A stretch of DNA of 64,000 nucleotides from Steroidobacteraceae bacterium (GTDB lineage: Bacteria > Pseudomonadota > Gammaproteobacteria > Steroidobacterales > Steroidobacteraceae). A program made the position numbers and the translations under genes. A model generated the notes under the pieces. It did not search any database, was not told where the DNA came from, and saw only the letters and a list, made by a program, of their open reading frames with translations. This document shows positions 25,717 to 55,622 of this stretch, in pieces. The stretch spans positions 21,299 through 85,298 of the forward strand of contig DATBKP010000173.1 in NCBI GenBank assembly GCA_036555785.1, written 5' to 3'. The first letter of the stretch is position 1. The number at the start of each line of letters is the position of its first letter.

Positions 25717-26496
25717 TTATTCTTCTTGGCGATCTTCGTCTTCACCTTCGCGCCTTGGCGAGACTGTCTTCTCTTCCTCCTTCTTCTCCCCCGCCGCCGG
25801 CATCCCTTTCGGCAGCAGCGTTTCGACGACGACCGTCGGCGCGAAGTAAGAGCGCCGATGGGAATCGCAGGACACTTTCTTGTCGAGCACTTTGACGTCG
25901 AGCTGCTTGAAGACGGTCGGGATCATCTGCTCCAGCAGCTCGCAGTCCTCGGGACGGAGGCGGATGGTGGCGCGTGACAGCGTCACTCGCTTGCGTTGCG
26001 CCGGGAAGATGATCGGGTCGTTGAGCGCGGCGAGCGGATTGCCGGTCACGCGCGACACCAGCTCGCGGCGCGACTTGTCCTTCTCGATTTCCTTCATCAC
26101 GTCCGGCGTGGCCTCGACCGGGAACATGACTTCGATGCGCACGTTGGAGGTCTGCATCCGATCGTCGCGCAGCCGCTCGTAGCGATCGGTCGGCCAGCCG
26201 AAGGGATCCGAGCGTCGCCACGGGGACTCGTCCGGCATCAGGAACAGCTCGCAGTTGCTGACCCGCACCTTGATGTCGTCGCGCGCGCCCAGGTTGAGCA
26301 GGATGGCGCCGACGTGCTGGCGCAGCTGGCCGCAGTCGAGCATGTTCGCGAAGCTGCGGTAGACGAACCGCACTTCGTGCACCTTGTAGACCGCGGCGAC
26401 ATCCTCCTGCGCGGCGGCCGCGCAGCTCGACGCGAGCGCACCGGCGGCGAGCAGCGCCGCCAATGCCTCAATCGAACGGCAGGATCTTCTCCTCAT
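25717..26496 (-). CDS. Secreted Cys-repeat protein, paralog A (two internal C-x26-C / C-x24-C modules, charged tail)
   Basis: Signal-like N-terminus. Clear homology to the 33520-34428 product (EIEKDKSRRELVSRVTGNP...DCELLEQM vs EVERDKSRRALVSRVQGNP...DCELLEQM). The start overlaps the lectin gene 3' end by 29 nt. Confidence 0.7.
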   Translation of the reverse strand: MRRRSCRSIEALAALLAAGALASSCAAAAQEDVAAVYKVHEVRFVYRSFANMLDCGQLRQHVGAILLNLGARDDIKVRVSNCELFLMPDESPWRRSDPFGWPTDRYERLRDDRMQTSNVRIEVMFPVEATPDVMKEIEKDKSRRELVSRVTGNPLAALNDPIIFPAQRKRVTLSRATIRLRPEDCELLEQMIPTVFKQLDVKVLDKKVSCDSHRRSYFAPTVVVETLLPKGMPAAGEKKEEEKTVSPRREGEDEDRQEE

Positions 26497-27946
26497 AGAT
26501 GAACTCGATGTTCGAGCCGCGCATCAGGTGCTCGCCGTTGAAATTCTCGCCGGCGACGTCACGGTAGCGTACGTGCTCGACGGCCCTCAGGAACAGCCTG
26601 ATGTCCAGCGCCGCAAGCCTGTAGGCGCCGCGCTCGTGGGACTTGATCGCGAGATCGAGCAGCACGCGCAGCGCCAGGTGATCGAGCTTCGGCAAGCCGC
26701 CTTTCACTTTCGCCTCGTCGACGGACGCGCGCAGCAGATCGAGCTTGTAGCGCTGCAGATCGATGAAGCTCTGGTGATTGCCTGCCGGGTTGCCGTCGGC
26801 GATCTCGTTGCCCGGTCCCGGATGAATGCGCAGGCCGACGAAATGATACGAGCCGTTGAGCACCTTGCCGCGCGAGCTGCCGCAATCGTAGGTCACTTCG
26901 GTGACCGTGCCGAAGTAGCGACCCGTGCCGCGCGAAGTCTCCAGCATCTCCTGCGGATCCTGCGCCTGCCACGCGACCACGTCGCGGTGCGACGGATCCG
27001 GATCGAATTGCCCGGCCGGGTTCTGGCGCAGCGCGCGACAGCCGAAGAGATTGTTGGGCAGCGCTTGCTCGGTCAGATTCTCGACCTCGATTGCGCCGCT
27101 GAGCACCTGCACGCCGCTGGTGTGAGTCTCGATCACGGTGAAGTCGGGATGACCGCATAGATACGGCGGGATGACGACGGCGCCATTGAACAGCGTCAGC
27201 GGCTGGTTGCCGCAGCGGCTGGGATTGTCGTGAATCGTCGTGACGCGTGCCGTCAGCGTCGCGCCCGGATCGACGACCGCTTCTGGCGGCAGCTGCAACA
27301 CCTGCGCGCCTGTCGGGTTGCACCCCGGACCGTCCGCCGTGCACGTGTCGGCGTCAACGGTGACCGCGCCTTCGCCGTATTCGACGACATAGCCCCACAC
27401 GTTCGGGAACGCACCTTCGTCGTTCCAGCCGAACACGCCGTTGAGTCCGATGGCCAGGTGCTCCTCGGTCGCGCGGTGCAACGAATCCGGGGTCCGGTGC
27501 AGGTTGTTCGGCTCGCCGCTCTGCCAGTTGGTGTACGGCGACGGGCCGTTGGTGGGCGCGATCGACTCGCCGTTGAGCCACATCCAGCCGCAGCCGGGCT
27601 CGGGTGTCGTCGTCGCGCACGGTACCTGGAATCCGCCGACCCACAGCTCAGTGCCGCTGAGCGACGGATGTGGGGCGTTCAGCACCTGCTGACGCAGCTG
27701 ATGCACGAAGGTGTCTTCCGCGGCCGAGCCGATCGTTGCGAGATGACCTTGCACACCCTGGAACGAGCGCTGCTCGGCTGCGGCCTTGGCCGCGTCCCAG
27801 CTGATCTTGTTCGCGATGACGACCTGGTAGTAGTGGCCGTCGAATTGCACCGGCGCCGGCGGCGTGAAGTTCGTCGCGCCCGCCGGCAGCGCGGCGCAGC
27901 CGAGCACCGCGGCAATGACGGAGGGAATCGTTCGGATCGAAGACAT
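26468..27946 (-). CDS. Secreted C-type lectin domain protein (EPN + WND motifs) with ~300-aa uncharacterised C-terminal region
   Basis: ATG at 27946, preceded by GGGGAGAG 5 nt upstream. Signal peptide MSSIRTIPSVIAAVLGCAALPAGA. CTLD landmarks: WDAAKAAAE..GHLATI.S..E..F, WVGG, QSGEPNN (nt 27506-27514), GWNDE (nt 27419-27427). Confidence 0.8.
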   Translation of the reverse strand: MSSIRTIPSVIAAVLGCAALPAGATNFTPPAPVQFDGHYYQVVIANKISWDAAKAAAEQRSFQGVQGHLATIGSAAEDTFVHQLRQQVLNAPHPSLSGTELWVGGFQVPCATTTPEPGCGWMWLNGESIAPTNGPSPYTNWQSGEPNNLHRTPDSLHRATEEHLAIGLNGVFGWNDEGAFPNVWGYVVEYGEGAVTVDADTCTADGPGCNPTGAQVLQLPPEAVVDPGATLTARVTTIHDNPSRCGNQPLTLFNGAVVIPPYLCGHPDFTVIETHTSGVQVLSGAIEVENLTEQALPNNLFGCRALRQNPAGQFDPDPSHRDVVAWQAQDPQEMLETSRGTGRYFGTVTEVTYDCGSSRGKVLNGSYHFVGLRIHPGPGNEIADGNPAGNHQSFIDLQRYKLDLLRASVDEAKVKGGLPKLDHLALRVLLDLAIKSHERGAYRLAALDIRLFLRAVEHVRYRDVAGENFNGEHLMRGSNIEFIYEEKILPFD

Positions 27947-27987: not shown

Positions 27988-30900
27988 TCAGCTGCGCACA
28001 GCCTGTGCCAGGTATTTCGCGGCTTTGTCCGGCCGGCCCGTGCTCTGATACAACCGGCCGAGCCAGCGATCCGAGCTCTTCAGGTAGTAACTCACCGCGC
28101 CGCTGCCGCCGTGGAGCACCGCATGGCTGTCCACGAGCAGCGGCTCGGCCCGATCGAATTGCCTCAGGCCCGCGCGCGCCGCGCCTTCGGCGCTGGCGGC
28201 CGTCGCGGTCCTCCAGTGATCGGCGCCGAGCGATTTCAGAAACAGGGCATGCGCGTCGGTCGCGAGCTGCAGCGCTTCGTCGTAGCGCTGGGTCTCGATC
28301 AGCACGCCGGCGAGCAGCGTCATGGTCGCCGCGGTGTCGGCGTGCTCCGGACCGAGACGCTTGCGGCGCACTTCGAGCGCGTCGCGCAGCAACTTCTCCG
28401 CCGCCGCGAAATCGTTGCGCTCCATCATCCACATCGCGAGATTGCTCATGCCGCGCGCGACCGATGGATGGTCTGCGCCGAGTGCGCGCGTATAGGTGTC
28501 GAGAGCCGCGCGCGACAGCTCGATGGACGTCTTCAGGTCGCCCTTGTCGTGCACGACGAACGCCAGGTTGTTGAGCGTCATCGCAACGTCCGGATGATCC
28601 GCGCCGAGGAGCTTGCGCTGCATCTGCAGCGCACTTTCGTAATACTGCTCCGCCTCGTCGTACTTGCGCTGCTCGTACAGCGCGCCCGCCACGTTGTTGA
28701 GCCCGATCGCGATCTCCGGATGCGAGCTGCCGAGCAGCACGCGCTTCATATCCAGCGCCTCGCGGAACAGCTGCTCGGCTTCGCGGCTCTGGCCGGTCTC
28801 GTCGATCACGAAGCCCAGGTTGTTCAGCGCCTCGGCGAGCGCCGGGTGCGGCCCGTCGTGGATCTCGCGCCGTATCGCCACCGCTTGCCGCAGCAGCTTT
28901 GCGGCGTCCTGATACGAGCCCTGGTCGTAGAGATTCAGCGCCAGACCTTCCAGGCTCTGCGCGACTTCCGCGCTGCGCGCGGGGAACAGCTTCTTGCGCA
29001 GCGCCAGCGCTTCGCGGAACAGCGGTTCGGCCTGGGTGAATTCGCCCCTGCGACCGAGCAGGTCGCCGAGCTCATACACGCTGCGCGCAGTGTCGACGTT
29101 TTCGTTGCCGAGCATCTCGCGACGCATCGCCAGCGCTTCGCGATACATCTGCTCCGCGGGCTCGTACTCGGCCTTGAGCTTGAGCACTTCGCCCAGACGA
29201 TCCAGCGAGCGCGCGACTTCCGGATGCTTTTCACCGTACAGCGCGCGCCGCTTCTCGAGCGCACTGCGCAGCAGCCCCACCGCCTGGTCGTACAGCCCGA
29301 GGCTGGTATAGACGGTGCCCATCGTTTCCATGAGCGTCGCCTGCGTCGCCGGCTGCGTCTTCAGCTCCGTGTCGATGCGCAAGGCGCCCTTGTCCATGAT
29401 CTCGCGGGCAGTGATCGTGTTGCCGCGCGCTTCGCTCGGATCCGCGACGTTGAACAGGTCGATCATGAAGTTCGTCGTCTGCTTCGCGGTCTCGGCCTCG
29501 GTCTCGGCGCTGCGGCGCGCCTGGTTCGCCAGTCCGCGCTGGTGATCGGCGAAGTAAGCGAAGAAGCCCGCGAGAATGGCCAGCGCAGCGATGCCGATCA
29601 CGGCGCCCGTGCGCATCCGCTGGACGCGCCGCTCGCGCGCCATCGAAGCCTGGATGAATCCGGCTTCGTCGGCCGCCAGCTCGATTCCCTGCTCCAGCAG
29701 CGATTCCGCTTCCACCAGCGGCTTGCCCGGCGGCAGCAACAGGTCGTTGCTCTTGTTCTCCGCCGCCCAGCGCTCGGCTGCAGCGGCGATACGCGAGCGC
29801 ACGCGCAGGTTCTCGCGGTTCTGCGCCACCCAATCGGTGACGCGCGGCCAGTGCCAGAGCAACGCTTCGTGCGCGACGGTGACCACGGCGCTGCCGTCAT
29901 CGGCGAGCTCGGTGACGTACAGCCGGTTCTCGACGAATGCGTCGATCAGCACGCGACTCTTGCCGGTGAACCGATCGGACCACGGCGCGCGCTTGCGGCC
30001 GACAGTCTCGTGCCCATCCTGCTCGATGCTCACCAGCGCGTTGAGCACTTTCGGCAGCTCGGCCTCCACGTCGTCCGGCAATTCCTTGAACACCGCTTCG
30101 GCGCGCTGCGCCAGCGAGCCTTCGACGCCGCCGAGCTCGCGGTAGGCCGCGAGCGTCAGCAATCCGTCCTCGGTGCGCCGCTGATAGAGCTCTTCGAGCG
30201 TGAACTGCAGCAGCGGCAGGATCTCGGGTCGCGCGACTGCCGCGTCGCGCAGCATGTCGTCGAGCGACTCGTTGGTGTTCGGATCTTCTTCGAAGCGCAG
30301 ACCGGCCGCGCGCGTCGGCAGCCGGATCATCTGTCCGATCTCGCTCGCGTTCGGCGGCATCAGGTCGTATTGGCCCGCGCCTTCCTTCAGCGCGCTGAGT
30401 TTCGGCAGCGCCGCCAGTCGCGGGTAGAAATCGCTGCGCAGCGTGCAAATGACCCACACTCGGCCGCTGCGTGCGAACGCGTCGACGACCTCGATGAACG
30501 CCTCGCGATGCTCGGGTGTGATGCCCTCGTGCGTGAACATCTCTTCCATCTGGTCGATGACCAGCGCGAGCCGGCCATTCGACTTGTCGCCGCCCGCCTC
30601 GCGCGCGAGCGCATTGCGGACGAGCGCCGTCGCTGCCTGCGGCGACTGGCGCAGCACCTGTGCGAGCTCATCGGCACCCGTGCCGTCGGCGTCGAGCGAG
30701 GGCAGGGCATCCTCCTTCAGCAGCGCCCGCGCGAGACCGGCGAAGATGTCGCCCCGAACGTCGGTTGGCCTGAACACGGCGCGTCGCCAGAACGCGATGC
30801 CTTCGATCACGCCGGGCTTGGTCAGCATCGGCAGCACGCCGGCACGCACGACCGAGGATTTGCCGCCGCCGCTCATGCCGAGGATCAACACGAACGAGCG

Positions 30901-31629
30901 ACCGTCGGCCGCCTGTGCGCGCAGCGCCTGTAGAATGCCGGACACCGCGCGCGTGCGGCCGAAGAAGACCGGAGCGTGCTCGAACTCGAACGCCGCGAGG
31001 CCGCGGAACGGCGAGCCCCTCTTCCAGACATCGCGTGCTTCGGAGGTGCCGGCTGCGCTGCGCGGCAGCTGCCGCTCGATCAGCCGCCGGAGGTGATTCT
31101 CCAGCAGGATCTCGAAATCGCTCGGCGACTCGAACGGATGGAAGGCCGCGACCAGCGTGCCCTCGGTGCGATCGTGGAACCACTTGTCGATGAACTCGTC
31201 GAGCTTCTTCTTCTGCGCCAGCCGCTCCATCAGGTCGCGCTCGTCGTCGAGCCGCACCGACGGCGGCGCAGTGCGCCGATAGACGAGCAGGTCCGGCTTG
31301 CCGTTCTTGCGGAAGCCTTCCATCGCTTCCTCGAACTCGTACTCGGTGCCGGATTCGTAGCGCGAGCCGTCGGCACGCGTGAACTGCGCCGGCAGCGGCG
31401 TGCCCAGGCGCGACCAGACGATGCAGACGACGACGTCCGCCTCGGACGGTTTGACCAGTTGCACCTGGAACGTGGCGGTGGCGACGAGGGGCTCGTGCTC
31501 CCACAGCACGGTTTCGAGAGCGACGCGGCCCATGTACTCGCTTTGCAGCCGCTCGATGACGCGGCCGGCGAGGGCACGCTCCTCGCACACATCGCCGGGC
31601 GAAGAGATGAAGAACTGCAGCTTCCTCAC
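27988..31629 (-). CDS. DUF4062/TIR-like N-terminal domain + nSTAND1-type P-loop NTPase + single TM helix + TPR array
   Basis: N-domain: KLQFFISSPGDVCEER...ADVVVCIVWSRLGTPLP...SGTEYEFEEA. NTPase: PFRGLAAFEFEHAPVFFGR, Walker A GMSGGGKSS (nt ~30853-30879), Walker B LALVIDQMEE (nt ~30541-30570), VAHEALLWHWPRV. TM helix GAVIGIAALAILAGFFAYFA (nt ~29551-29610) follows RERRVQRMR. About 470 aa of TPR follow. The probable start is GTG 31629 (MRKLQFF); the track start TTG 31686 is the alternative. Confidence 0.9.
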   Translation of the reverse strand: MRKLQFFISSPGDVCEERALAGRVIERLQSEYMGRVALETVLWEHEPLVATATFQVQLVKPSEADVVVCIVWSRLGTPLPAQFTRADGSRYESGTEYEFEEAMEGFRKNGKPDLLVYRRTAPPSVRLDDERDLMERLAQKKKLDEFIDKWFHDRTEGTLVAAFHPFESPSDFEILLENHLRRLIERQLPRSAAGTSEARDVWKRGSPFRGLAAFEFEHAPVFFGRTRAVSGILQALRAQAADGRSFVLILGMSGGGKSSVVRAGVLPMLTKPGVIEGIAFWRRAVFRPTDVRGDIFAGLARALLKEDALPSLDADGTGADELAQVLRQSPQAATALVRNALAREAGGDKSNGRLALVIDQMEEMFTHEGITPEHREAFIEVVDAFARSGRVWVICTLRSDFYPRLAALPKLSALKEGAGQYDLMPPNASEIGQMIRLPTRAAGLRFEEDPNTNESLDDMLRDAAVARPEILPLLQFTLEELYQRRTEDGLLTLAAYRELGGVEGSLAQRAEAVFKELPDDVEAELPKVLNALVSIEQDGHETVGRKRAPWSDRFTGKSRVLIDAFVENRLYVTELADDGSAVVTVAHEALLWHWPRVTDWVAQNRENLRVRSRIAAAAERWAAENKSNDLLLPPGKPLVEAESLLEQGIELAADEAGFIQASMARERRVQRMRTGAVIGIAALAILAGFFAYFADHQRGLANQARRSAETEAETAKQTTNFMIDLFNVADPSEARGNTITAREIMDKGALRIDTELKTQPATQATLMETMGTVYTSLGLYDQAVGLLRSALEKRRALYGEKHPEVARSLDRLGEVLKLKAEYEPAEQMYREALAMRREMLGNENVDTARSVYELGDLLGRRGEFTQAEPLFREALALRKKLFPARSAEVAQSLEGLALNLYDQGSYQDAAKLLRQAVAIRREIHDGPHPALAEALNNLGFVIDETGQSREAEQLFREALDMKRVLLGSSHPEIAIGLNNVAGALYEQRKYDEAEQYYESALQMQRKLLGADHPDVAMTLNNLAFVVHDKGDLKTSIELSRAALDTYTRALGADHPSVARGMSNLAMWMMERNDFAAAEKLLRDALEVRRKRLGPEHADTAATMTLLAGVLIETQRYDEALQLATDAHALFLKSLGADHWRTATAASAEGAARAGLRQFDRAEPLLVDSHAVLHGGSGAVSYYLKSSDRWLGRLYQSTGRPDKAAKYLAQAVRS

Positions 31630-31773
31630 GTTTCGCCCTGTGATCGGTATCGCGACAGTGATTCTCGCGCCGGACTGTACTCTCAAAAGTCTTGCTGTGA
31701 AAGCCGTAAATACTTGTAGCGCCTTGCATTATGAACTCACAATGCGCGTCCTCCGTTGTCGGCTTTTTTGACT
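31630..31773. promoter_or_regulatory. Divergent control region between the STAND and SLOG-SLATT genes, locally AT-rich
   Basis: The stretch ctcaaaagtcttgctgtgaaagccgtaaatacttgtagcgccttgcattatgaactcacaatg is far less GC-rich than its surroundings. Possible sigma70-like TTGTAG-N17-TCACAAT on the + strand. Confidence 0.4.
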
Positions 31774-33510
31774 ATGAGCTCACCTTTCGTAATCGGCGTG
31801 TCCGGACATCGCGATCTGCACTCCGGCGCGCTCTCGCAACTCAGCCTCCGGATCGACGAGTTCCTGGCCGACCTGAAGCGGCGCCTGCCCGATACCGAGC
31901 TGCGCATCATGACGGGCATGGCGCAAGGCGCGGATCTGCTGGTGGCGCGAGCGGCGGCGAGGGCCGGATGCAAGGTGGATGCGGTGCTGCCGATGCCGCT
32001 CGAGGAGTACATCGCGGACTTCGACGCGGAGTCGTCGACGGCGCTGCGCGCGTTGCTCGCGGATCCGGCGGTCGCCTGCACGGTACTGCAGCCCCCGCCC
32101 GGATCCGATACGAGTGATGTATCCGGCGCCAGTCGCTCGGCGTTCTATGCGAATCTCACGCACACGCTGACCGCGAAGTGCAATCTGCTGCTCGCACTCT
32201 GGGATGGCCGCACTTCTGCGCTCGAGGGCGGCACGGCGGACACCGTGCTGCGTTATCTCGGCGCGCGCACTCATCACGGCCACAACGAGTCGCAGATCGA
32301 GTTCCAGGCCGCGACTGCCGAGGCGGCCTGGGGTCCGCATTTCGTGTACTGGATTCCAACGCTGCGCAGCGACGGCGCGGCGCTGACGTCAGCTGAGCCA
32401 GCCTACCTGACCGGCATAGGCGAGCATCTGCTGGCCGACCACGGTAGGCAGATGCCGCACGCACTGGCGCTGCAGTTCGTCGAGCTGAGTACCTACAACC
32501 ACGAGTTTGCGCGGCTGAGCGGCAAGCACGCCTTCGCGCGGCTGGACACCTTGTTGCCGACGCTGGGCTCGGTCGACGCCGCGGACGAGCGTGGGGCGCT
32601 GCAGCGGATCGACGCGGAGTACGGCAAAGCGGATGCACTCGCGATCTACTATCAGCGGCACTCCGACCGGCTGTTCCGTGGCTTCAGCTACACGGCGTCA
32701 TGCATGGCGCTGCTGTTCCTGATCTACGCCAAGCTCTGGGCAAACTCCGTGCTGCTATCCGTCTATCTCACGATCCTGCTGCTCAGTGTCGTGGTGTTCC
32801 ATCGCTTGCGCACGCGCCAGTGGTTCTCGAAGCACCTGGTCTATCGCGTGCTGGCCGAGACGATGCGCATCAAGTTCTTCCTGCGCGCCGTCGGCGCCGA
32901 CCGGCTCGTCAGCGCCGCCGAGCTGATCAATCTCACCGGGATCGATCAGTTCACCGGCTTCAGCTGGATCGGCAATCTGCTGAAGAACGTGGAGCCGATC
33001 GACGTGCGCGCACGCAACGGCGAGGCTGTGGAGCGCGCGCGTCTCGCGAACGTGCATCGGCACTGGATCGTCGGTCAGCAGGAATACTTCCGCAGGCGGG
33101 TGCGCGCGCTGGAGCGCGACCATCGACGACTGGAAGTACTAAAGAGTGCGCTGCTCTATGCGATCGCGACGTTCGCGCTGATCCTGCTGGTGTTCGCCAT
33201 CCCGTTGCACGAGCGGCTGCTCGGCGCGGTCACCTGGAAGGACGCGGTGCTGTTCCTGATGGGCCTGCTGCCGGTATGGCTCGGCATCTGGGAGCTCTAC
33301 CAGAACAAGATGGCGATGCGCGAGCTGCTGTGGCAGTACCGCAATCAGCTCGGCCACTTCACCATCGCCGAGCTGCAGCTGTCGCGCGATACGACGGCGG
33401 ACCGTTCACAGGAAATTCTCGCGCAAGTCGGCAAGGAAGCGCTGATGGAGAGCTATCTGTGGACGATCCACCGCTTCCATCGCGAGTACGAGCCGCCGGC
33501 GGCGACGTGA
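31774..33510 (+). CDS. SLOG-like Rossmannoid domain fused to two SLATT/DUF4231-like 2TM modules
   Basis: N-domain: FVIGVSGHRD...RIMTGMAQGADLLVARAAARAG...VLPMP...LLLALWDG..SALEGGTADTV. The first 2TM pair is aa 304-343 (nt ~32683-32802), followed by W..H.VYRVLAETMR. The second pair is aa 457-508 (nt ~33142-33297), preceded by QQEYFRRRVRALERDHRR. ATG at 31774; the track start 31756 is TTG. Confidence 0.8.
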   Translation: MSSPFVIGVSGHRDLHSGALSQLSLRIDEFLADLKRRLPDTELRIMTGMAQGADLLVARAAARAGCKVDAVLPMPLEEYIADFDAESSTALRALLADPAVACTVLQPPPGSDTSDVSGASRSAFYANLTHTLTAKCNLLLALWDGRTSALEGGTADTVLRYLGARTHHGHNESQIEFQAATAEAAWGPHFVYWIPTLRSDGAALTSAEPAYLTGIGEHLLADHGRQMPHALALQFVELSTYNHEFARLSGKHAFARLDTLLPTLGSVDAADERGALQRIDAEYGKADALAIYYQRHSDRLFRGFSYTASCMALLFLIYAKLWANSVLLSVYLTILLLSVVVFHRLRTRQWFSKHLVYRVLAETMRIKFFLRAVGADRLVSAAELINLTGIDQFTGFSWIGNLLKNVEPIDVRARNGEAVERARLANVHRHWIVGQQEYFRRRVRALERDHRRLEVLKSALLYAIATFALILLVFAIPLHERLLGAVTWKDAVLFLMGLLPVWLGIWELYQNKMAMRELLWQYRNQLGHFTIAELQLSRDTTADRSQEILAQVGKEALMESYLWTIHRFHREYEPPAAT

Positions 33511-33519: not shown

Positions 33520-34428
33520 TTATTTCGCTTGGGCCTTGCGCTGCGCGGCCTCGTCGGCGCGCTTCTTGGCACGCTGCTCGCCGGGCATGAGATAGCCGAC
33601 CGGCAGCAACGCCTCGACCTTCAGCTGCGGCTTGAACGAACGCGAATCGCACGACAGCGACGAGCTGTTCACCTTGAAGCCGAGCTCGCGGAACACGGTG
33701 CGGGACATCTGCTCGAGCAGCTCGCAATCGAGCGGCTCGAGCTCGATCGTCTCGTGCGACAGGTGGACCTCGCGGCGCTCGGCGGCGAAGAAGATCGGAT
33801 CGTCCATCGCCGTCGACGGATTGCCCTGCACGCGCGAGACCAGTGCACGGCGCGACTTGTCCCGCTCCACTTCGGCGAGGATCTCCGGCGTGATGACGAC
33901 CGGCAGCATGAGCTGGATGTAGACCGGCGTCGTTTGCGACTTGTAACGATCGAACTGGTCGCCGTGGGTCAACGTCTGGCGGCGCGCCATCCGCTGGTCG
34001 ATCGGGCTGCGCATGAGGTCGTTGTTGCTGCCGGTGAAGTCGCCGCCGCCGGGCTGAAACGTGCCCGAGGCGTTCGGGTCCGACCTGCGGGGCGAGCGGG
34101 CATCGGTCACGAACGCATCGCATTCGCGAGCGCTCACCTGGACGTCGTCGCGCGCGCCCAGCTCGCGCAGGATCGTCGCGACGCGATTACGGATCTCGTC
34201 GCACGCCAGGATGCTGTTGGTGCTGCGATAAGTGAAGTTGACTTCGCGCGCCTTCAGCACCGCGGCAAATTGCCCGGGCGGCAATTGCTGGGCCTGCTCC
34301 TGCGTATGCAGCTGCTCTTGCGTGCTCTGCGCAGCCGGATCCTGCTCCTGCGCGCAAAGCGCGCTGCAAATCGCGAGCGAGCCGGTGGCAACCGCGACCA
34401 GCGCGGAGCGGGTGAGTGTGCGAGGCAT
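33520..34428 (-). CDS. Secreted Cys-repeat protein, paralog B
   Basis: ATG at 34428 with signal peptide MPRTLTRSALVAVATGSLAICSALCA. Same two-module Cys pattern as paralog A, a Q-rich N-terminal linker and a basic tail. Confidence 0.75.
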   Translation of the reverse strand: MPRTLTRSALVAVATGSLAICSALCAQEQDPAAQSTQEQLHTQEQAQQLPPGQFAAVLKAREVNFTYRSTNSILACDEIRNRVATILRELGARDDVQVSARECDAFVTDARSPRRSDPNASGTFQPGGGDFTGSNNDLMRSPIDQRMARRQTLTHGDQFDRYKSQTTPVYIQLMLPVVITPEILAEVERDKSRRALVSRVQGNPSTAMDDPIFFAAERREVHLSHETIELEPLDCELLEQMSRTVFRELGFKVNSSSLSCDSRSFKPQLKVEALLPVGYLMPGEQRAKKRADEAAQRKAQAK

Positions 34429-34650
34429 GCGAGCGACTGTACTCCCAAAAATCCGGCGGCGGAACCCACGCCAGGCCTGCGTTTCATGCTCGCTGACAAC
34501 ATGAAAAGCGCCCTGATTTGTCCGACGCGGCCGGCCGTTGCACCCGTCGATCGCTCCTTTATTACATTACCGGGCGCGCACTTCCGCTGCGATCCCTATT
34601 CCGCAACCACCGCTCCGAGGACTATCCTTGCGGTACTTCAGGGGGGAGTC

Positions 34651-36171
34651 ATGGAACTGGCGTTGTCCAGCCGTTTCGACCCGCGTGTTTCGCGCAGAAT
34701 GTATGGCGTCGCTGCCTCCGCAGCGGTGCACGTCGCCCTGTTGCTCTTCATTATGTTCGGCGGCAATCAGTACGGCATCGACGCCGAAGACACGCCGACT
34801 TCCAAGCTGGTACTGATCGAAGCGCCCGACGCCGAGCAGCGCGATGGCGAGGATCTGCCGCCGATGCCTGCCGGCTCGACCGCGCCTAGCGAAGTCGAGC
34901 TCGAACAGGCGCTGGCGAAACTGTCGCCGCCGCAGAGCGAAACGATCGCGGACCAGGCGGTCGAGCCGGGTCCGATCGATGAAGTGCAGGCGCCGGTCGC
35001 CGCGCCGGTTGCGATCGCGGCCGTCGAAGGACCCGAGTCGACGATCACGATGCCTTCGAACGAGCGGGCCGCCTTGTCGCGACGTCTCGAGCAGCTGGCC
35101 GCGGAGGCGCTCAAATCGTCGCGCTCCGAAGTGACCTGGGAGCAGGATGGCCGGCAGTACAACGCGCTGCTGATCCGCGAGCGCGCGAACGAAGGCACGG
35201 CGCTGGAGCGGGTGACCGCGCAAGTCAGCGCGTCGGATCACGGCAGGAAGATGACGACGCTGGTGAATCTGAACCGACTGTCGTTCTCGCAGTTCACGCA
35301 GATGGTGGATCACTGGGATCCGATGGTGCAGATCCACGACGACGAGATCGTCGGCCGCTTCCACAGCAACTCGCGCTTCAGCCTGCTGTCGGACTCGCGC
35401 AGCGCGCCGAAATTTCTCGGCAAGGTGACCACCACCGCGCGCGGGTTCAACAGCGAGTCGATCGGCCGGCTGCGCGACGCCGAAATCTTTCGCGGCGGCA
35501 TCGAGACCGGCACCAGCGAGATCGAGTTGCCGGCATCGTCGCAGCCGTTCCAGTGGGCGCCGCGCGACGAGCAGGCGCGCGTGCACGAGCTTGCGGGCGA
35601 CACGCGCATTCGTTTCTTCCCCGACGGCAGCTATCGCTGGACCGACATCGACTCGGCGCAGTCGCATTACCTCAACGACCCGTCGGACCATCCGGTGTAT
35701 TTCATCGCGACCGGCAAGGCGGCGCTGCAGGTCGAGGGCGTCGTGTCCGGCAAGATCCTGGTGTACTCGCCGCGACGCGTAGTGATCGAAGGCAGCATCA
35801 CGTACGCCGACGATCCGCGCCACAACGCCAGCTCGGAAGACTATCTCGGCATCGTCAGCGACCGCGTGGTCGAAGTGGCGCCGCCCGCTGTCACCGGCGG
35901 TGGCGACCTGGAAATCGACGCCGCGATCTTCGCCGGCCATCGCTTCGTCGTGACGGGCATCGATCATCCGCGCACCGCGACGCTGCGCATCTACGGCAGT
36001 CTCGCGGCCGGCACGATCTCGGCGACCGAGCCGCGCTACGCCACCAAGATCGACTACGACCCGCGCTTCGAGCGCCGGCGCCCGCCGGGCTTCCCTGCCA
36101 CCAACCGCTACGAAGCGGCCGAGTGGGACGGCAAGTGGACTGAGCAACCGCAGCAATCCGCCGGCAACTAG
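34651..36171 (+). CDS. N-terminally membrane-anchored exported protein, unknown function (Pro/Glu-rich spacer + large beta-rich domain)
   Basis: GGGGGGAG precedes ATG 34651. TM anchor VAASAAVHVALLLFIMFGG, then an acidic Pro-rich spacer. The C-terminal region has repeated beta-strand patterns. The upstream part of track ORF 33529-36171 is a shadow. Confidence 0.7.
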   Translation: MELALSSRFDPRVSRRMYGVAASAAVHVALLLFIMFGGNQYGIDAEDTPTSKLVLIEAPDAEQRDGEDLPPMPAGSTAPSEVELEQALAKLSPPQSETIADQAVEPGPIDEVQAPVAAPVAIAAVEGPESTITMPSNERAALSRRLEQLAAEALKSSRSEVTWEQDGRQYNALLIRERANEGTALERVTAQVSASDHGRKMTTLVNLNRLSFSQFTQMVDHWDPMVQIHDDEIVGRFHSNSRFSLLSDSRSAPKFLGKVTTTARGFNSESIGRLRDAEIFRGGIETGTSEIELPASSQPFQWAPRDEQARVHELAGDTRIRFFPDGSYRWTDIDSAQSHYLNDPSDHPVYFIATGKAALQVEGVVSGKILVYSPRRVVIEGSITYADDPRHNASSEDYLGIVSDRVVEVAPPAVTGGGDLEIDAAIFAGHRFVVTGIDHPRTATLRIYGSLAAGTISATEPRYATKIDYDPRFERRRPPGFPATNRYEAAEWDGKWTEQPQQSAGN

Positions 36172-42118: not shown

Positions 42119-43921
42119 ATGGCTTCCCGCTATCGCGCGCTCGCTGCCTACTCGGTGCTGCTCGCCGCCGGCGCCGGCGCTTGGCTCGTCGCCGAGCTGT
42201 TCGAGGCGCGGGGATTCCCGCCCGCCTGGGTCGTCGCGCTCGCCGTCGTTGCCTGCCTGTTCGTCTTCCAGTTCGGCCTGCGCATGCGGATCGGCCTCAT
42301 CTCGATGGAGCGCGTGCCGCAGATCGGCTTGCTGCTCGTGTTCAGCCCGGCGATCGCCGCCGCGATCTGCGCGACCGCGTCGTTCATCTGGCCGCTCTTC
42401 AATCGCGACTACAGCCAGGGCTCGACGACGTTCGCGGCGCTGCGCGCTCTGCACAACGCTGCGATGACGATCATCATGCTGCTGGCCGCAGGCGCGGCGT
42501 ACACGGCAGCCGGCGGTCAATATCCGTTGACCAGCGTGGGTGTCGCGGATCTCTGGCCACTTGCCGCGATGGCGATCGTCGCGCAGCTGGTGAACACCGG
42601 GGTCATGACACTGTTCTTCCTGTTCGACCGTCGTGACGTGCGCAGCGTGCTCAAGCCTGCGTACGTCCTATCGGACTTCGTGTTCGTCCCGGCGGGCGTG
42701 CTGGCCGCGGTGCTGTACAACGCCGGCCAACTCTCGGCGTTCGTGCTGTTCGCGCTGGTGATGCTGGTGTTCGTGTTGAGCTTCAACAGCATCGGTATCG
42801 CCGCGACCGCGGCCGAGCGTCGCGGGCCGATGGCGAAGCTGTTCGAATCGAGTCGCGCACTGCATGGCGCGCGCCGCATCGACGAGCTCGGCGAGCGCAT
42901 TCTCACGGAGACGCGCACGCTGTTCCGCTTCGACGAGTTCTACTTCGTGCTGGTCGAGCCCGGAGCGCAGATCCTCGACTTCCGGGTCCATGAGCGCGGC
43001 GGCGAGCGCCTGCCGGCGCGGACCAAGAGCGTCAACGCGGGCTTGTTCGGCTGGACGGTGGAGCGGCGCGAGCCGCTGCTCATCGAGGACTGGTCGCGCG
43101 CGCCCGCCGAGTTGCGTCAGCGTGCCGAGACGACCGGAAAGGAAACAGGCTCGGTGATCGTCGTGCCGTTGATCGAGAGCGGCACGGTGACGGGTCTGCT
43201 CAGCGTGCAACACACCGCTGCGGGCGTGTACTCGTTGGCAGACCTGCATCTCATGCAGCAGCTCGCCACGCAAGTTGCGCCTGCCGTCGCCGATGCACGC
43301 GTGTTCGAAGATCTCGAAGACTATCGGATGCGACTGGAGCTGCGCGTCGCCGAGCGCACGCACGAGCTGGAGAAGGCGAGCACCGAGAAGGAGCGGCTGA
43401 TCGCGGCGCTGCGCGAGCGCAGCCTCAGGCTCGAGCGCGAATCGCAGGAGGATCCGCTGACCGGTCTCGCCAATCGCCGTCACTTCGCGCAGCGTCTGGC
43501 CGCGGAGATGGAAGTGGCGCTGGCAGTCGGGCATCCGCTCAGCATTGCAGTGGGCGATCTCGATCACTTCAAGGTCATCAACGACCGTCTCGGGCATGCC
43601 GTCGGCGACAAGGTGCTCAACGAAGTCGCCGTGCTGATGCGCAGCGAGTGCCGCCCGTCGGACCTGGTCGCGCGCATCGGCGGCGAAGAGTTCGCGCTGA
43701 TCCTGCCGGGTCTGTCGCAGGAGCCCGGGCTGGAGTTCTGCGAGCGCCTGCGCGCCTGCGTCGAGCGCCACGACTGGCGGCACGTGCAACCGGATCTCAA
43801 CGTCACGCTCAGCATCGGGCTGGCGCAGTGGGATGGCAGCGCGGAAGTGCCGGAACTGCTGCAGGCCGCTGACATCCAGCTGTATCGAGCGAAGCGCGCG
43901 GGAAGGAACCAGGTGGCTTGA
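42119..43921 (+). CDS. Membrane-bound GAF-GGDEF diguanylate cyclase
   Basis: Polytopic N-terminus, a GAF-like region, a coiled coil, and a GGDEF domain with RIGGEEF and an RxxD-type context. Confidence 0.9.
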   Translation: MASRYRALAAYSVLLAAGAGAWLVAELFEARGFPPAWVVALAVVACLFVFQFGLRMRIGLISMERVPQIGLLLVFSPAIAAAICATASFIWPLFNRDYSQGSTTFAALRALHNAAMTIIMLLAAGAAYTAAGGQYPLTSVGVADLWPLAAMAIVAQLVNTGVMTLFFLFDRRDVRSVLKPAYVLSDFVFVPAGVLAAVLYNAGQLSAFVLFALVMLVFVLSFNSIGIAATAAERRGPMAKLFESSRALHGARRIDELGERILTETRTLFRFDEFYFVLVEPGAQILDFRVHERGGERLPARTKSVNAGLFGWTVERREPLLIEDWSRAPAELRQRAETTGKETGSVIVVPLIESGTVTGLLSVQHTAAGVYSLADLHLMQQLATQVAPAVADARVFEDLEDYRMRLELRVAERTHELEKASTEKERLIAALRERSLRLERESQEDPLTGLANRRHFAQRLAAEMEVALAVGHPLSIAVGDLDHFKVINDRLGHAVGDKVLNEVAVLMRSECRPSDLVARIGGEEFALILPGLSQEPGLEFCERLRACVERHDWRHVQPDLNVTLSIGLAQWDGSAEVPELLQAADIQLYRAKRAGRNQVA

Positions 43922-43937: not shown

Positions 43938-45125
43938 CTAGTGCGGCTCCGCCGCGTAATGCTGCCGCAGCAGATCCTTCCCGTAGTCATTGCCGTTTGG
44001 CGTGCGCACCACGGCGTGGATGTGCTCGCGGTACGGCACGTCGGGATACAAGTGCCGCAGGTTGGCCGGCTTCTGGTGATCGAACTCGATCAGGATCACC
44101 GGGCTGTGAATGCGATAGTAGAACACCGAGTCCGGCTCGGTGCCGCCGATCCACGCGAAGTAGGTCTGATCCATGTGTGCGTCGACCTCGTCGATACGCA
44201 CGCGCGCCTGATCGTCGCGCATGTTGTGCACGTAGAGTCCGATCAGCCTCAACAGCTGGCGCTTCTGCGACGCGCTTAGCGTGCGTACCGCGACGCCAGC
44301 GTAGTCCAGCACCACGTTGTCCTTGAATGCTTCGGTCAGATTGTCGTTGCCTGTCTTCGATACGTGCAGCGTCGCGGCTTTGCGCTGCTCCGGCGTCAGC
44401 GCTTGCATGAACTCGAGCCCCGCATCCTGTTCCGGCTTCATCACGCGCGTGCCGCGATACTTGCCCGCGGCTGCATACGTAGGCTCGGAGCCGAAGAAGG
44501 CTGGCGTCATCACGACCTGGTCGCCGAGCACGAAGTAGTTGAGGATCAGGTGGTGGCCGTCGAGCTGAAAGCCCCACGGCTCGCGCGCCGCTGGCGTTCC
44601 CATGACCGTGACCCAGTACAGCCCCTCGTCGTATTCGACGAAGTTGTCGTGGTTGAGCTCGCCGAGCGTGTGGTTGAGCTTCATGATGTCCTGGCTCAGC
44701 TTCAGCCCCTTCGCGCTCAGTGCCGCGCCGAGCAGTCCGAACGCAGCCGCGCGCTGCGCCTCGCTCATCTCTTTGAAGCCCACGCCCTGGCGTACGTAGA
44801 AGCTCTGATTCATCCACTTGCGCCATTCGACGTCGTCGACCGGGAACATCGTCCTGGCTCGCTGCTCCGGCGTCAGAGCCGCGAGAAACTTCTCTGCGGC
44901 AGTCCGTACCGGCGCGGTGGAGACGCCGGTGGCATGCACCGGGAACAGGCCGCGAACCGGCTCGCCGTTCGTGGTGATGCCTTTGAACTCCTCGGCGAGG
45001 CCGGTCTTTTCCGCGGCGCGTGACATCTCGGGAAAGCGTGCGACGCGATCGGTCTGGGCGAGCGCCACCCAGGCGAGCGACAGGGTGGCCGCGAACAGGA
45101 CGAATCTGCTGCTGGATCGTGACAT
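43938..45125 (-). CDS. DUF3500-family secreted protein
   Basis: ATG at 45125 with signal peptide [23 protein letters not shown]. The [10 protein letters not shown] motif is typical of DUF3500. Confidence 0.75.
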
Positions 45126-45145
45126 GGCGTATAAGATCCCGGCCC

Positions 45146-47341
45146 ATGAGCATTCTCGCATGCGTGCTCGCAGCCGTCGCGGCTATCTGCGTCTACGCAT
45201 GCATCGCTCACGTCTTCGCTGCCCGGCATCCCTGGTTTCGCAGCGTTCACCTGATCTTCGCCGCACTGGCGCTGATGGCTGCGGTACACGCTGCCGCTCA
45301 CATCGGCGTGTATTCCGCGAAGGACGTCGGCGCGTACGTCGCTGCCGAGCGTTATTCCAATCTGGCAGGTGCGTTTGCGATGGCGCTGGTGCCGTGGCTG
45401 GTCCAGGGCTACTTCGCGGCCGGGAGCCGCTGGATCGCGATCGTCATGAGTGCGTTCTACGCGCTCAGCGGCGTGATCTATGAAGTCGCTGCAGTCGGCT
45501 CGCCGTCCCGGCCGACGCCGGTGCTCGAACGAATCGCACTGCCATGGGGAGAGATGGCAACGATCCATCGTTTGCCGGAGGTGCCGGTTGCGGCATGGAT
45601 CTTCTGGGGCGTGAGCCTGCTGCTGCTCGCGTACGTGGCTGCATTGTGCGCAGGTCAGCGACAACGACGCGGCTCGCTGCAAGCCCTCGCCATGGCCGGC
45701 AGCATCTCCGCGCTCATGCTGGCGCTCGCGGCGAACATGCTGATCCTCGCCGGTGACCTCGACTCGATCTTCCTCGGCGAGTTCGGCTTCCTGGCGATCG
45801 TGCTGACGATGATGCGGCTGCTCAGCGGCGAGGAGAGCTATCGCGCGATGATCGGGCAGGCGTCGGTGGGGATCTTCGTGGTGTCGGCGACCGGCCGGTT
45901 CCTGGACGCGAATCGCGTCGGCGAGCTCATGCTGGCCCGCACGCGAGCCGAGTTGCGCAAGCTCTCGCTGCACGACGTCGTGGTAAGTGCGCCGACGACG
46001 GCGCCGATTCCGCGCATCGTGCAGGCGCTGCGGCGTGGTGACGGCACGACCGTGCTCGCGGATATTTCGTCGCAACGGCTGTCGGACGGCCGGACGCTCT
46101 GTGTCGCGCTGAACGTGACGGAGACGGTGCGCATAGAGACGGCCTTGCAACTGCTGGCCGAGTCCGGTCCGGCGGAAGACAGCGAAGCATTCGTCGGCCG
46201 CTGCGCGGCGACGCTTGCGCAGGCATTTGGCGCGAGTCACGCCGTCGTGGGCATGGTCGATGAGCACGCCGGCAGGATTCGTATCCTCGGGCAGTCGCCG
46301 GCGCGACCGGCCGCCGACGACGGCTATCCTCTCGCGACCGCGCCCTGTGCGCAGCTGAGCGCGGAGCGGCGCTCGATGCACGTCACCGGACTCGCTGCGC
46401 AATTTCCCGAGCACGCGCCGTTCACGCGCTTTGCTTCGGGCGCTTATCTCGGCGCGGCGATTCTCAATTCGGCGGGCAGCGTCACCGGCGTCGTCGAGAT
46501 CTGGGATGAGACGCCGTTCGCCGTCGGCCCGGGCTCGCAACAGATTCTCGAAACCTTCGCGCATCGTATCGGCGCAGAGCTCGAGCGCGCTGCCGCGGAT
46601 CGCGGGCTGCGCGAGCTCACGGCAACACTCGAGGCGCGCGTCGCGGCGCGTACCTCGGAGCTGGCGCGGGCCAACGAGGAGCTCGAAGCATTTTCGTATT
46701 CCGTGTCGCACGACCTGCGCGGTCCGGTACGTGCCGTCGATGCGCACGCCGCAATGTTGCTGGAGGAGGCGGACGCCGTGCTCGACGCCGGGGCGCGACG
46801 ACACGTCGATCGTATCGTCCAGGCGGCGCGGCGCATGCGCGACCTGATCAACGGGCTGCTGCAGCTCGCGCAGCTGTCGCACCAGCCGCGCTCGCTGCAG
46901 ATCGTCGATCTGAGCCAGCTGGCGAGCCACGCGATGGAGCTGCTGCAGGAGCGGGATCGTGAGCGCCGCGTGGAATTCGTCTGCGCGCCGGGGGTGCGAG
47001 CGAGCACGGACCTGACGGCCATCAACGTCGTGTTGACGAACCTGATCGAGAACGCCTGGAAGTATTCGTCCCAGGTGCCGCACGCCCGCATCGAGTTCGG
47101 CGTACAGCGCGAGAACGACGCCACCGTGTACTTCGTACGCGACAACGGCACCGGCTTCGAGATGCAGTACGCCAAACGGCTGTTCAAACCCTTCCAACGG
47201 CTGCACGCGTCGGGCGACTATCCCGGCTCCGGCATCGGCTTGGCGACGGTCGATCGGCTGATCCGGCGCCTGGGAGGCCGTGTCTGGGCCGAAAGCGCGC
47301 CCGGCGAGGGCGCGACGTTCTACTTCACGCTCGGGTCGTAG
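45146..47341 (+). CDS. Multi-TM sensor histidine kinase (7TM-type N-terminus, PAS, GAF, HisKA, HATPase_c)
   Basis: ATG at 45146. H-box [12 protein letters not shown] box [10 protein letters not shown] boxes DNGTGF and GSGIGLATV. Confidence 0.9.
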
Positions 47342-51843: not shown

Positions 51844-52723
51844 ATGAAGCCCCGAATCCTTCGCGCCGGCCGCACCCTCGCGCTGACGAGCGTCGCCGCG
51901 CTCATGCTGTCCGGATGCACGGCGCTGGATGCGCTGATGGGTGGCTCAAACGGCACCCGGCAGACGCACAACTCGTCGAGCCTCGTCGAATTCCTCTACC
52001 CGAACGGCGCCACGCCGCCCGCTGAGAACCAGATTCCGGAGCTGAAGGTGCCGCTGCGCGTCGGCCTGGCGTTCCTGCCTTCGCCCGAAGGCGCCGGTCC
52101 GACGGCCGCCGATCGCGAAGCATTGCTGGAGCAGATCCGCCAGCGCTTCTCGAGCCGCAAGTTCGTGACCGAAATCGTCACGATCCCCGAGTACTACCTG
52201 CGCAACAGCAAAGGCTTCGAAGGATTGCAGGGCGTGCAGCGCCTGTACTCGGTCGACATCATGGCGCTGGTTTCGTACGACCAGGTCGAGCACCTGGACG
52301 AGAACGAGTGGTCGCTCGGCTACCTCACCATCGTCGGCGCGTACGTGCTCAAGGGCAACCGTCACGACGTTGCGACGCTCGTCGATCTCGCGGTCGTGGA
52401 TCCCGTGACGCAGTCGCTGATCCTGCGTGCCGGGCACTGACAGCCGCGCTCGCAACTCGACGCTCGTGGATCAGCCGCGCGAAGCGCGCGAGTCGAACAC
52501 CGCCAGCTTCGCGGCCGCGACGACGCAGATGGTCGACAACTTCGATGTTGCGCTGACGAAGTTCGAAGCCGACGTGCGCGCGGGCAAGGCCAACGTCCGC
52601 GTCGCCAAGCGCGCGAGCGGCGGCGGCAGCAGTGGTGGTGGCGGCAGCTTCGCGCCGCTATCGCTCGGCGTACTGATGATCCTGGTTGTTGCGCGTCGCC
52701 GTGCCGTGCAGCGCGTCGCTTAG
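51844..52723 (+). pseudogene. Rhombotarget-type lipoprotein (lipobox + GlyGly-CTERM) interrupted by a +1 frameshift near 52431-52440
   Basis: Frame 1 runs MKPRIL...LMLSGC... and ends at TGA 52438-52440. The next frame continues ...TDSRARNSTLVDQ... and ends in GGGSSGGGGSFAPLSLGVLMILVVARRR, a GlyGly-CTERM-type tail. The second piece has no signal peptide of its own. Confidence 0.65.
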
Positions 52724-55477: not shown

Positions 55478-55563
55478 CTTGAGTCTCCCCACGCCCGGCG
55501 CTCCCCGGCGGTCCGGGCGCAATACCGGCGTAAGTACCCGCCGCCGGTGTTCAGATTCTAGGC

Positions 55564-55587: not shown

Positions 55588-55622
55588 CTGCGGACCCTGA
55601 CACTTCTACACATAACGGGGAG

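Follow-up and report, generated by a model that had tools for sequence, protein, structure and literature searches.

A predicted single-span NIR-nSTAND1-TPR protein encoded beside a putative secreted C-type lectin in Steroidobacteraceae

In animals, plants, fungi and bacteria alike, STAND/NLR receptors are regarded as sensors that work inside the cell, and in the accepted model of their activation a repeat sensor folds back onto the NTPase within the same compartment. Among described proteins, PsAvs2 and other NIR(DUF4062)-STAND-TPR proteins combine an N-terminal NIR domain, a central STAND NTPase and C-terminal tetratricopeptide repeats (TPRs) (bioRxiv 10.64898/2026.09.04.749371). NIR is the new name of DUF4062, a TIR-like NADase family distantly similar to TIR domains and to deoxyribosyltransferases (NDTs), with the catalytic Glu at E97, E98, E103 or E108 in bacterial members; oligomerization activates NADases of the DUF4062/TIR type, and STAND NTPases likewise oligomerize upon activation (bioRxiv 10.64898/2026.05.01.722283; 10.64898/2026.09.04.749371). 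Here we analyze a stretch of 64,000 nucleotides from a Steroidobacteraceae bacterium (GenBank assembly GCA_036555785.1, contig DATBKP010000173.1, positions 21,299 to 85,298; hereafter the window), in which a reverse-strand gene encodes a STAND protein with, in this order, a DUF4062/NIR TIR-like domain, an nSTAND1 NTPase, one hydrophobic helix and a TPR region. We consider it probable that this protein is a bitopic inner-membrane NLR-like receptor, clustered with the gene of a secreted lectin and mostly also with that of a SLOG/SLATT-like protein, in which clustering across the membrane would trigger an NADase.

Compared with PsAvs2-type proteins, the window protein belongs to another STAND clade (nSTAND1), has a predicted span between the NTPase and the repeats, and has a putative secreted lectin and a SLOG/SLATT-like protein as partners, whereas PsAvs2 is soluble. 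In the texts of the NIR preprints the word "transmembrane" is absent and "membrane" occurs once, in an unrelated context. The nSTAND1 clade was defined by Kaur et al. (eLife 2021, PMC8195603), and the part of that article's text searched mentions no span. The human proteins NPHP3, TEP1, NWD1 and NWD2 (DUF4062-NACHT-TPR/WD40) share the domain order, and the TPRs of the window protein match the TPR_NPHP3 model below threshold, but the human proteins are soluble, contain a NACHT NTPase and lack a membrane span. Kibby et al. (bioRxiv 10.1101/2022.07.19.500537, Supplementary Discussion) included "TM regions" among the classes of C-termini that bacterial NACHT proteins have and proposed that some NACHT proteins containing transmembrane (TM) regions sense intramembrane or periplasmic signals; the TM regions of that class are described as multiple and can lie within the NACHT module, whereas the window protein has a predicted single span, a large repeat ectodomain, an NTPase of the nSTAND1 clade and an NIR effector. 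Dore et al. (PNAS 2024, PMC10907252) reported that targets of Thiohalocapsa diversity-generating retroelements combine STAND domains (NACHT or nSTAND1) with C-type-lectin-fold (CLec) sensors, one NACHT-CLec target being predicted to be periplasmic. The idea of a STAND protein that senses the periplasm is thus already in the literature. The Thiohalocapsa lectin fold is, however, fused and hypermutated, whereas the lectin of the window is separate, predicted to be secreted, and carries canonical EPN/WND motifs; none of the neighboring genes scanned was noted as part of a diversity-generating retroelement. In the literature searched, we found no description of the single-pass NIR-nSTAND1-TM-repeat architecture, of its dominance within a subfamily, or of the pairing with a lectin and a SLOG/SLATT-like protein.

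The STAND open reading frame (ORF; 27988..31686, reverse strand) encodes 1232 aa from a TTG at 31686 and is the only ORF at the locus with a gene-like codon composition (GC3 of 0.87, typical of the genes of the window). An earlier examination of the DNA made without database searches (the sequence-only reading) had taken this whole frame as the gene. The ORF is real, but its start is probably misplaced: close orthologs are 1211-1216 aa long, and because a GTG at 31629 (..GGGCGAAAC GTG AGG AAG CTG CAG TTC TTC ATC..) yields a protein of ortholog-like length, 1213 aa, the true start is probably at that codon. Residue numbers below refer to the 1232-aa frame unless the 1213-aa numbering is stated. 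All motifs quoted in the sequence-only reading were found at their expected places, including PFRGLAAFEFEHAPVFFGR (aa 226-244) and VAHEALLWHWPRV (aa 604-616), and its assignment of the protein as an nSTAND1 NTPase with an N-terminal effector-type domain agrees with our results. The Pfam nSTAND1 model (PF20703) matched aa 226-647 with an E-value of 7.3e-96 and 322.5 bits (cutoff 27.1), over positions 1-378 of the 379 in the model.

Two sets of homologs were compared with this protein. The orthologs are the 120 closest database proteins, 73-100% identical across the first 782 aa, and come from metagenome-assembled genomes of Steroidobacteraceae and Woeseiaceae. The wider family was collected by searching 1.84 billion cluster representatives with the NTPase only, which retrieved 37,478 relatives at E<0.001; the representatives analyzed are the best 150 of these (40-80% identical, mostly about 50%), and 147 of them could be scored for the helix. 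The Walker A motif is kept in 142 and the Walker B motif in 134 of the 150 representatives, and both are present in all 120 orthologs. When the window cluster was scanned with PADLOC, no Avs family model matched the STAND protein, which was hit only by a generic TPR model, by the N-terminus of PDC-S60 and weakly by CARF_TM, and no known defense system was found for either the STAND protein or its SLOG-like neighbor. The STAND protein may nevertheless act in the manner of an Avs without being classed among them.

Between the NTPase and the TPR region lies one helix resembling a canonical membrane span, as the sequence-only reading had stated. It is the sole 19-residue window of the protein with a Kyte-Doolittle mean above 1.6 (peak 2.33; next best 1.12), its Hessa apparent free energies sum to -1.24 kcal/mol, whereas no other segment of the protein does better than +8.3, and it contains an uncharged run of 21 residues. 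Ala and Leu abound in the protein, and among composition-preserving shuffles of its sequence 4.3% match the hydropathy peak and 0.9% match the uncharged run; the hydropathy evidence from this single sequence is therefore modest and marginally significant. Because the significance is marginal, we dropped single-sequence hydropathy as a basis, and the argument for a span is made from positional conservation across the family.

The sequence-only reading had tied its topology to the conservation of the segment in orthologs, and a hydrophobic segment is present at the helix position in 118 of the 120. In an alignment of the 111 full-length orthologs, the helix is the region of lowest identity (0.50, compared with 0.81 for the NTPase), and 17 of the 20 helix columns hold a hydrophobic or small residue in 100% of the sequences. 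Four residues, L702, A706, A710 and A713, are conserved in 98-100% of the orthologs; together they make up one small-residue face of AxxxA type, suggestive of helix-helix packing. For the survey of nSTAND1 homologs that the same reading had called for, a helix was scored as present when a Kyte-Doolittle window of at least 1.6 occurred between -15 and +60 residues of the NTPase end. An equivalent segment follows the NTPase in 134 of the 147 nearest representatives (91%; 72% at a threshold of at least 2.0), whereas control offsets in the same proteins gave mostly 0-3%; the single control offset with 19% (1% at the higher threshold) coincides with a strand buried in the NTPase core. The predicted TM architecture is the norm for this nSTAND1 subfamily and not an oddity of the window gene, so that the word "unusual", applied to it beforehand, is partly right for STAND proteins in general and wrong within the subfamily.

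The orientation of the span was assessed from the flanking charges and from the rest of the chain. Over the 134 helix-containing representatives, the uncharged core has a median length of 21 residues (range 19-26), and the 15 residues before it contain on average 5.9 Lys and Arg, compared with 2.9 in the 15 residues after it; the N-terminal side has the larger number in 126 of the 134 (Wilcoxon p=1e-21). The positive-inside argument of the sequence-only reading is thus weak for the window protein alone (5 versus 3 Lys and Arg) and very strong for the family. No N-terminal signal peptide was found in the STAND protein by hydropathy, a hydrophobic N-terminus occurs in just one of the 134 representatives, and exactly one hydrophobic segment follows the NTPase in 128 of them. 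Three representatives (P0130, P0136 and P0160) carry two or three such segments instead of one. Since the N-terminal 690 residues are expected to be ATP-dependent and have no signal peptide, they are probably cytoplasmic; with a single span and the observed charge bias, an N-in/C-out topology that places the TPR region in the periplasm is then the expected one, as had been predicted. This step of the model is indicated by sequence statistics, and we judge it likely that the membrane is crossed by this helix, the TPR region lying outside.

The region beyond the helix is 519 aa long and contains about 457 aa of TPR, a correction of the roughly 470 aa assigned to TPR in the sequence-only reading. 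It begins with a juxtamembrane linker, which is more conserved than the repeats (identity 0.73 versus 0.65 in the 111 orthologs) and in which many columns are 90-100% identical. About 11 TPRs follow the juxtamembrane motif, recognized by Pfam TPR_10 (E=1.1e-78, nine stretches) and TPR_12 (E=2.8e-73); TPR_NPHP3 matched with E=3.1e-45, below the cutoff of that model. A scan of the TPR region with NCBIfam gave sub-threshold, TPR-level similarity only, to PilW, Tgl, PorW and FlcA-type periplasmic TPR proteins. Identity among orthologs declines along the TPR region from 0.80 to 0.55 toward the C-terminus, and aa 714-1232 contain no Cys.

Among the representatives, the NIR-nSTAND1-helix module is constant, and the N-terminal domain itself is present in 141 of the 150; a few have an extra or alternative N-terminal kinase or other effector-type domain. 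The module after the helix varies, being TPRs of several types, WD40, HEAT, PDZ with RHS, or nothing known. Such variability is a signature of the sensor position in STAND proteins, and the post-helix region is accordingly a candidate sensor. At the N-terminus, P0154 has a Pkinase domain confirmed by Pfam, P0130 and P0136 look kinase-like by eye, and P0157 looks caspase-like by eye.

The window encodes a second protein of comparable layout, a Ser/Thr kinase of 1001 aa (52658..55663, reverse strand) with a Pkinase domain (E=1.5e-38), one helix at aa 483-501 and TPR_12-type repeats, so that a cytoplasmic domain, a single span and TPRs follow each other as in the STAND protein. Bitopic Ser/Thr kinases such as this one share with the STAND protein a cytoplasmic signaling domain, one span, C-terminal TPRs and the predicted N-in/C-out orientation, and differ in having a kinase output in place of STAND and NADase. 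A mobile cassette of TM helix, juxtamembrane segment and TPRs common to both proteins was considered and rejected, as BLAST gave no significant juxtamembrane similarity.

The gene directly downstream of the STAND gene encodes a putative secreted lectin. This adjacency was found in 14 of the 14 first-round loci that reach far enough, and it holds in loci with otherwise unrelated flanks and at lectin identities down to 34%; the two genes also adjoin in four loci reached from distant lectin homologs or from SLOG-like homologs (L019-L022). The EPN motif, E161 and the WND motif are invariant in 12 lectin orthologs, and in an alignment of 42 lectin sequences P146, N147 and WND are invariant, E145 and E161 are at least 90% conserved, and six to eight Cys are conserved in the lectin alignments. 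Pfam Lectin_C matched 9 of the 12 members, the window protein remaining below the cutoff. A profile of the family searched against the PDB retrieved nearly exclusively C-type lectins (best E=7.8e-5), and an AlphaFold2 model of the lectin (pLDDT 86) led Foldseek to the CEL-IV lectin (E=1.1e-5, TM-score 0.64-0.68). All 42 homologs have a signal-peptide-like N-terminus. The window protein contains an LGC sequence that suggested a lipoprotein, but its Cys is not conserved in orthologs; this reading was therefore dropped, and a plain Sec signal peptide is more likely. The family is narrow, with 197 database proteins, all annotated as "hypothetical", and it is co-distributed with the receptor. A secreted partner with eight conserved Cys would independently point to a binding surface outside the cytoplasm, and the invariant pairing of the two genes suggests that bacteria may use this receptor class to sense extracytoplasmic events.

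On the other side of the predicted membrane, the N-terminal domain is a candidate NADase effector. Its match to Pfam DUF4062 (PF13271) has an E-value of 0.0039 and 17.8 bits, below the cutoff of 24.7, and for the homologs P0129 and P0211 the score rises to 21.7 bits (E about 2e-4), again for an N-terminal match below the cutoff; the N-terminus of PADLOC PDC-S60 matches the domain with E=3.6e-9. The motif SGTEYEFEEA contains the candidate catalytic Glu, aa 117 (E98 in the 1213-aa numbering; codon 31336..31338). In an alignment of N-domains excised from representatives, comprising 34 diverse sequences with 45-65% identity to the query, neither E98 nor G94 varies, and the motif SGTE.EF occurs in 118 of the 120 orthologs. 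From its position and motif, this Glu probably corresponds to the published catalytic residue. An AlphaFold2 model built from the 34 sequences (pLDDT 88.4) shows a flavodoxin-like alpha/beta fold. A Foldseek search of viral predicted structures with this model returned a deoxyribosyltransferase as top match (E=1.6e-6), with other NDTs and a CAP12 TIR lower; the same search of the PDB gave weak, generic flavodoxin-like matches only and no assignment from solved structures, and PDB sequence searches with the N-domain, as a single sequence and as a profile, found nothing significant. In its conserved Glu near positions 98-108 and in the NAD+ hydrolysis expected after oligomerization, the domain resembles the DUF4062 NADases PsAvs2, Swarozyc and Evangelion, and by extrapolation from such proteins we take it to be an NIR-type NADase effector.

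The third member of the cluster, the SLOG/SLATT-like gene, is divergent from the STAND gene. In its product, a SLOG-like domain at the N-terminus precedes two pairs of hydrophobic helices, with hydrophobic segments at about aa 316-349, 466-484 and 497-515. The window protein matches YAcAr (SLOG) with E=3.6e-4, which is sub-threshold. Among 36 family members, SLOG models (YAcAr in 25, best 1.9e-5; DprA-like in 28) and SLATT models (SLATT_1 in 6, best 1.6e-5; SLATT_3 in 5; DUF4231 in 6) all matched below their cutoffs, and a profile of the family gave no match in the PDB. In nine close loci and in L022 the gene lies next to the STAND gene and is transcribed away from it; in L019, L020 and L021 a homolog (31% identity, E=1.5e-49) lies after the lectin gene on the same strand. 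Because the linkage survives this change of gene order, we argue for a functional connection. In those Woeseia-like relatives, the STAND-TM-TPR, lectin and SLOG/SLATT-like genes are collinear on one strand (L019:3179-10359; also L020 and L021).

In L023 (9001-12609), on the contig of L015, a SLOG/SLATT-like homolog with 56% identity lies away from the STAND gene, 82 nt upstream of a same-strand gene for a soluble TIR_2-TPR protein of 591 aa. This arrangement suggests that the SLOG/SLATT-like family pairs generally with TIR-type enzymes. Thoeris, in which the TIR enzyme ThsB acts with the SLOG sensor ThsA, likewise links a TIR-type enzyme to a SLOG-like protein, and the L023 homolog beside a TIR_2 gene is a further likeness. 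In the window, however, the SLOG-like domain is fused to SLATT-like helices and not to SIR2, and the link is missing from the fetched flanks of six loci. PADLOC found neither a ThsA nor a ThsB match in the window cluster; the likeness to Thoeris is one of logic only.

These observations can be combined into a model of signaling. The NIR domain and the nSTAND1 NTPase are predicted to lie in the cytoplasm, with one helix in the membrane and the juxtamembrane motif and about 11 TPRs in the periplasm. The periplasmic TPR region, probably with the secreted lectin as co-receptor, would detect a glycan- or envelope-related extracytoplasmic cue. Repeats on the far side of a membrane cannot fold back onto the NTPase as in soluble STAND proteins, so ligand-driven clustering, transmitted by the small-residue helix face and the juxtamembrane motif, is favored as the signal. 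By the precedent of STAND and DUF4062 proteins, NTP-dependent oligomerization would then gather the TIR-like domains and lead to NAD+ cleavage. More speculatively, NAD+ depletion or an ADP-ribose-derived product may act on the SLOG/SLATT-like protein, as in Thoeris. The complete chain, from the lectin co-receptor to the SLOG/SLATT-like output, is a tentative proposal. Its role could be either an abortive-infection-type defense or a response to envelope threats, and the evidence does not favor one of them.

Toll-like receptors have a solenoid ectodomain, a single TM helix and a cytoplasmic TIR domain that is activated by clustering. The window protein resembles them in its predicted solenoid outside, single helix and TIR-type domain inside; the resemblance is an analogy and not whole-protein homology, since Toll-like receptors have LRRs where the window protein has TPRs, and since in the latter a STAND NTPase stands between the helix and the TIR-like domain, the effector is N-terminal and the chain is reversed. 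A bolder version of the model, which we regard as rather unlikely, would make the protein a hybrid of Toll-like and NLR receptors, in which TPRs and a Ca2+-type lectin sense a foreign or damage-associated glycan, the helices cluster, nSTAND1 oligomerizes, the TIR-like NADase fires, and its product or the loss of NAD+ gates the SLOG/SLATT-like membrane effector. Were it true, the NIR-nSTAND1-TM family, with its TPR, WD40, HEAT and PDZ ectodomains, would be a widespread and unrecognized group of extracytoplasmic pattern-recognition receptors. Even short of this, sensor and NTPase are predicted to be on opposite sides of the membrane in 91% of the 147 closest representatives of a family of thousands, and if the topology is right a receptor-kinase-like or Toll-like mode of activation is needed. 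Bacteria would then couple outside events such as phage adsorption, predators, neighbors or envelope damage to NAD+ cleavage inside, with the paired lectin offering a candidate co-receptor and ligand class and the SLOG/SLATT-like gene a candidate downstream effector.

Several other explanations were weighed against this receptor model. A conventional STAND protein confined to one compartment would result if the hydrophobic segment were a re-entrant or monotopic anchor, or a buried oligomerization helix, with the TPRs in the cytoplasm. Soluble STAND proteins do require contact between sensor and NTPase, and 4.3% of the shuffles of this Ala/Leu-rich sequence attain an equal hydropathy peak, but we find this explanation very unlikely: a re-entrant hairpin would need more than an uncharged core of 19-26 aa (median 21), the segment is not amphipathic but hydrophobic on every side, its sequence drifts while its hydrophobicity is kept, the positive-inside bias is consistent (126/134), the segment is enriched at this position (91% versus 0-19% in controls), the conserved operon partner is a predicted secreted, Cys-rich lectin, and a kinase-TM-TPR protein of the same layout is encoded in the window. 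The helix could also be a mere tether in an N-in/C-out protein, with periplasmic TPRs that serve as a scaffold or localization module docking envelope machinery or the lectin; no signal would cross the membrane, and the STAND switch would be triggered from the cytoplasm or would not be ligand-gated. TPRs are common as periplasmic scaffolds, and the weak NCBIfam matches are to proteins of the PilW, Tgl, PorW and FlcA type; the TPR region is rather conserved (0.65 identity), unlike a diversifying sensor, and no mechanism is known for STAND autoinhibition across a membrane. Nevertheless, a tether appears unlikely, as the post-helix module changes (TPR, WD40, HEAT, PDZ/RHS, none known) while effector, NTPase and helix stay constant, which is the pattern of a sensor position, and as the juxtamembrane motif and one helix face are more conserved than a passive anchor requires.

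A different question is what a receptor of the proposed kind would be for. The same mechanism might serve housekeeping, the protein being a Steroidobacteraceae/Woeseiaceae sensor of surface glycans or envelope state, with adjusted NAD+ metabolism, dormancy or aggregation as output, and not a component of anti-phage or anti-predator immunity. Conservation that appears vertical (identities of 65-93%, with a single match in each locus fetched), uniform GC with ordinary chromosomal neighbors and no mobile-element or defense genes nearby, the lack of a PADLOC system match, and the narrow lectin family (197 homologs) co-distributed with the receptor all speak for such a role. Against it, all DUF4062/NIR proteins tested so far act in defense or in cell-death-type NAD+ depletion, SLOG/SLATT and TIR partners are typical of conflict systems, and the flanks vary between genomes while the gene pair is kept, as for a self-contained cassette. 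We regard housekeeping as a serious possibility, if a somewhat doubtful one; the components suggest defense, and the strong, apparently vertical conservation and the lack of a defense island suggest a lineage-specific housekeeping sensor.

A number of points weigh against the membrane receptor that we propose. The case for its topology consists of hydropathy, charge bias and conservation, all read from sequence. Binding of the TPR region to the lectin is our own supposition, the TPRs could be a scaffold and not a sensor, and the STAND module would need to stay inactive without intramolecular contact between sensor and NTPase. The DUF4062 match lies below the Pfam cutoff, the fold matches in the PDB are generic, and the NADase role is extrapolated. 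A SLOG/SLATT-like homolog was not found in the fetched flanks of L001, L002, L008, L010, L013 and L015, and all matches that define this family are sub-threshold. Finally, the locus is not in a recognizable defense island, and across two bacterial families the STAND protein retains 65-93% identity, which would not be expected of an antiviral sensor that evolves fast.

Table 1 Coordinates of the STAND cluster and its predicted features in the window.
Feature	Position	Strand	Remarks
NIR(DUF4062)-nSTAND1-TM-TPR gene	27988..31629	-	1213 aa from GTG; maximal ORF 1232 aa
DUF4062/NIR-type TIR-like domain (putative)	31057..31629	-	aa 20-210; sub-threshold Pfam match, motif, fold model
nSTAND1 NTPase module including C-terminal helical extension	29617..31011	-	aa 226-690
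Walker A, GMSGGGKSS	30853..30879	-	aa 270-278
Walker B, LALVIDQMEE	30541..30570	-	aa 373-382
Arg-rich stretch RERRVQRMR, predicted cytoplasmic side	29611..29637	-	aa 684-692
Predicted single TM helix, GAVIGIAALAILAGFFAYFA	29548..29607	-	aa 694-713; hydropathy, conservation
Juxtamembrane linker, predicted periplasmic	29362..29547	-	aa 714-775; motif NFMxDLFxxADPxxxxGxxxTxxE
TPR region, predicted periplasmic	27991..29361	-	aa 776-1232; TPR_10/TPR_12, NPHP3/KLC type
Lectin gene	26468..27946	-	492-aa product; 41 nt after STAND gene; GGGGAG ribosome-binding site
Lectin signal peptide (predicted)	27875..27946	-	
C-type lectin domain	27371..27865	-	EPN 27506..27514; WND 27419..27427
Lectin beta-sandwich	26807..27370	-	AlphaFold2 model
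Lectin four-helix bundle	26483..26788	-	AlphaFold2 model
SLOG/SLATT-like gene	31756..33510	+	584 aa; divergent from STAND gene; candidate effector/receiver
Possible fourth gene	25717..26496	-	259 aa; signal-peptide-like N-terminus; overlaps lectin 3' end by 29 nt
Paralog of the possible fourth gene	33520..34428	-	302 aa; signal-peptide-like N-terminus

The possible fourth gene follows the lectin gene in six close loci (L003, L004, L005, L007, L009 and L012), and its membership in the system is uncertain. Together with its paralog it brackets the three-gene cluster; Pfam and NCBIfam scans of the two products gave no match. The GC content around the cluster is uniform (0.65-0.67) and the neighbors are ordinary chromosomal genes, encoding peptidases, hydrolases and an SRPBCC protein; no mobile-element or known defense genes were seen in this neighborhood. 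A recent horizontal acquisition and a location in a defense island were considered and dropped in view of the uniform GC and the ordinary neighbors.

Farther away, the window contains a reverse-strand gene (3269..7549) for a protein of 1426 aa with multiple PKD, Big_9, cadherin-like and bacterial TSP3 repeats, which probably serves as a large adhesin on the cell surface and seems unrelated to the STAND cluster. A GAF-GGDEF diguanylate cyclase (42119..43921, forward strand) and a PAS histidine kinase (45020..47341, forward strand) are encoded about 10-15 kb from the cluster, with no link seen. The forward-strand gene at 34600..36171 encodes a product of about 520 aa that has no Pfam match and contains the hydrophobic segment ..AASAAVHVALLLFIMFGG..; homologous sequence is found at the edge of L003 and L012, which makes this gene part of a conserved wider neighborhood.

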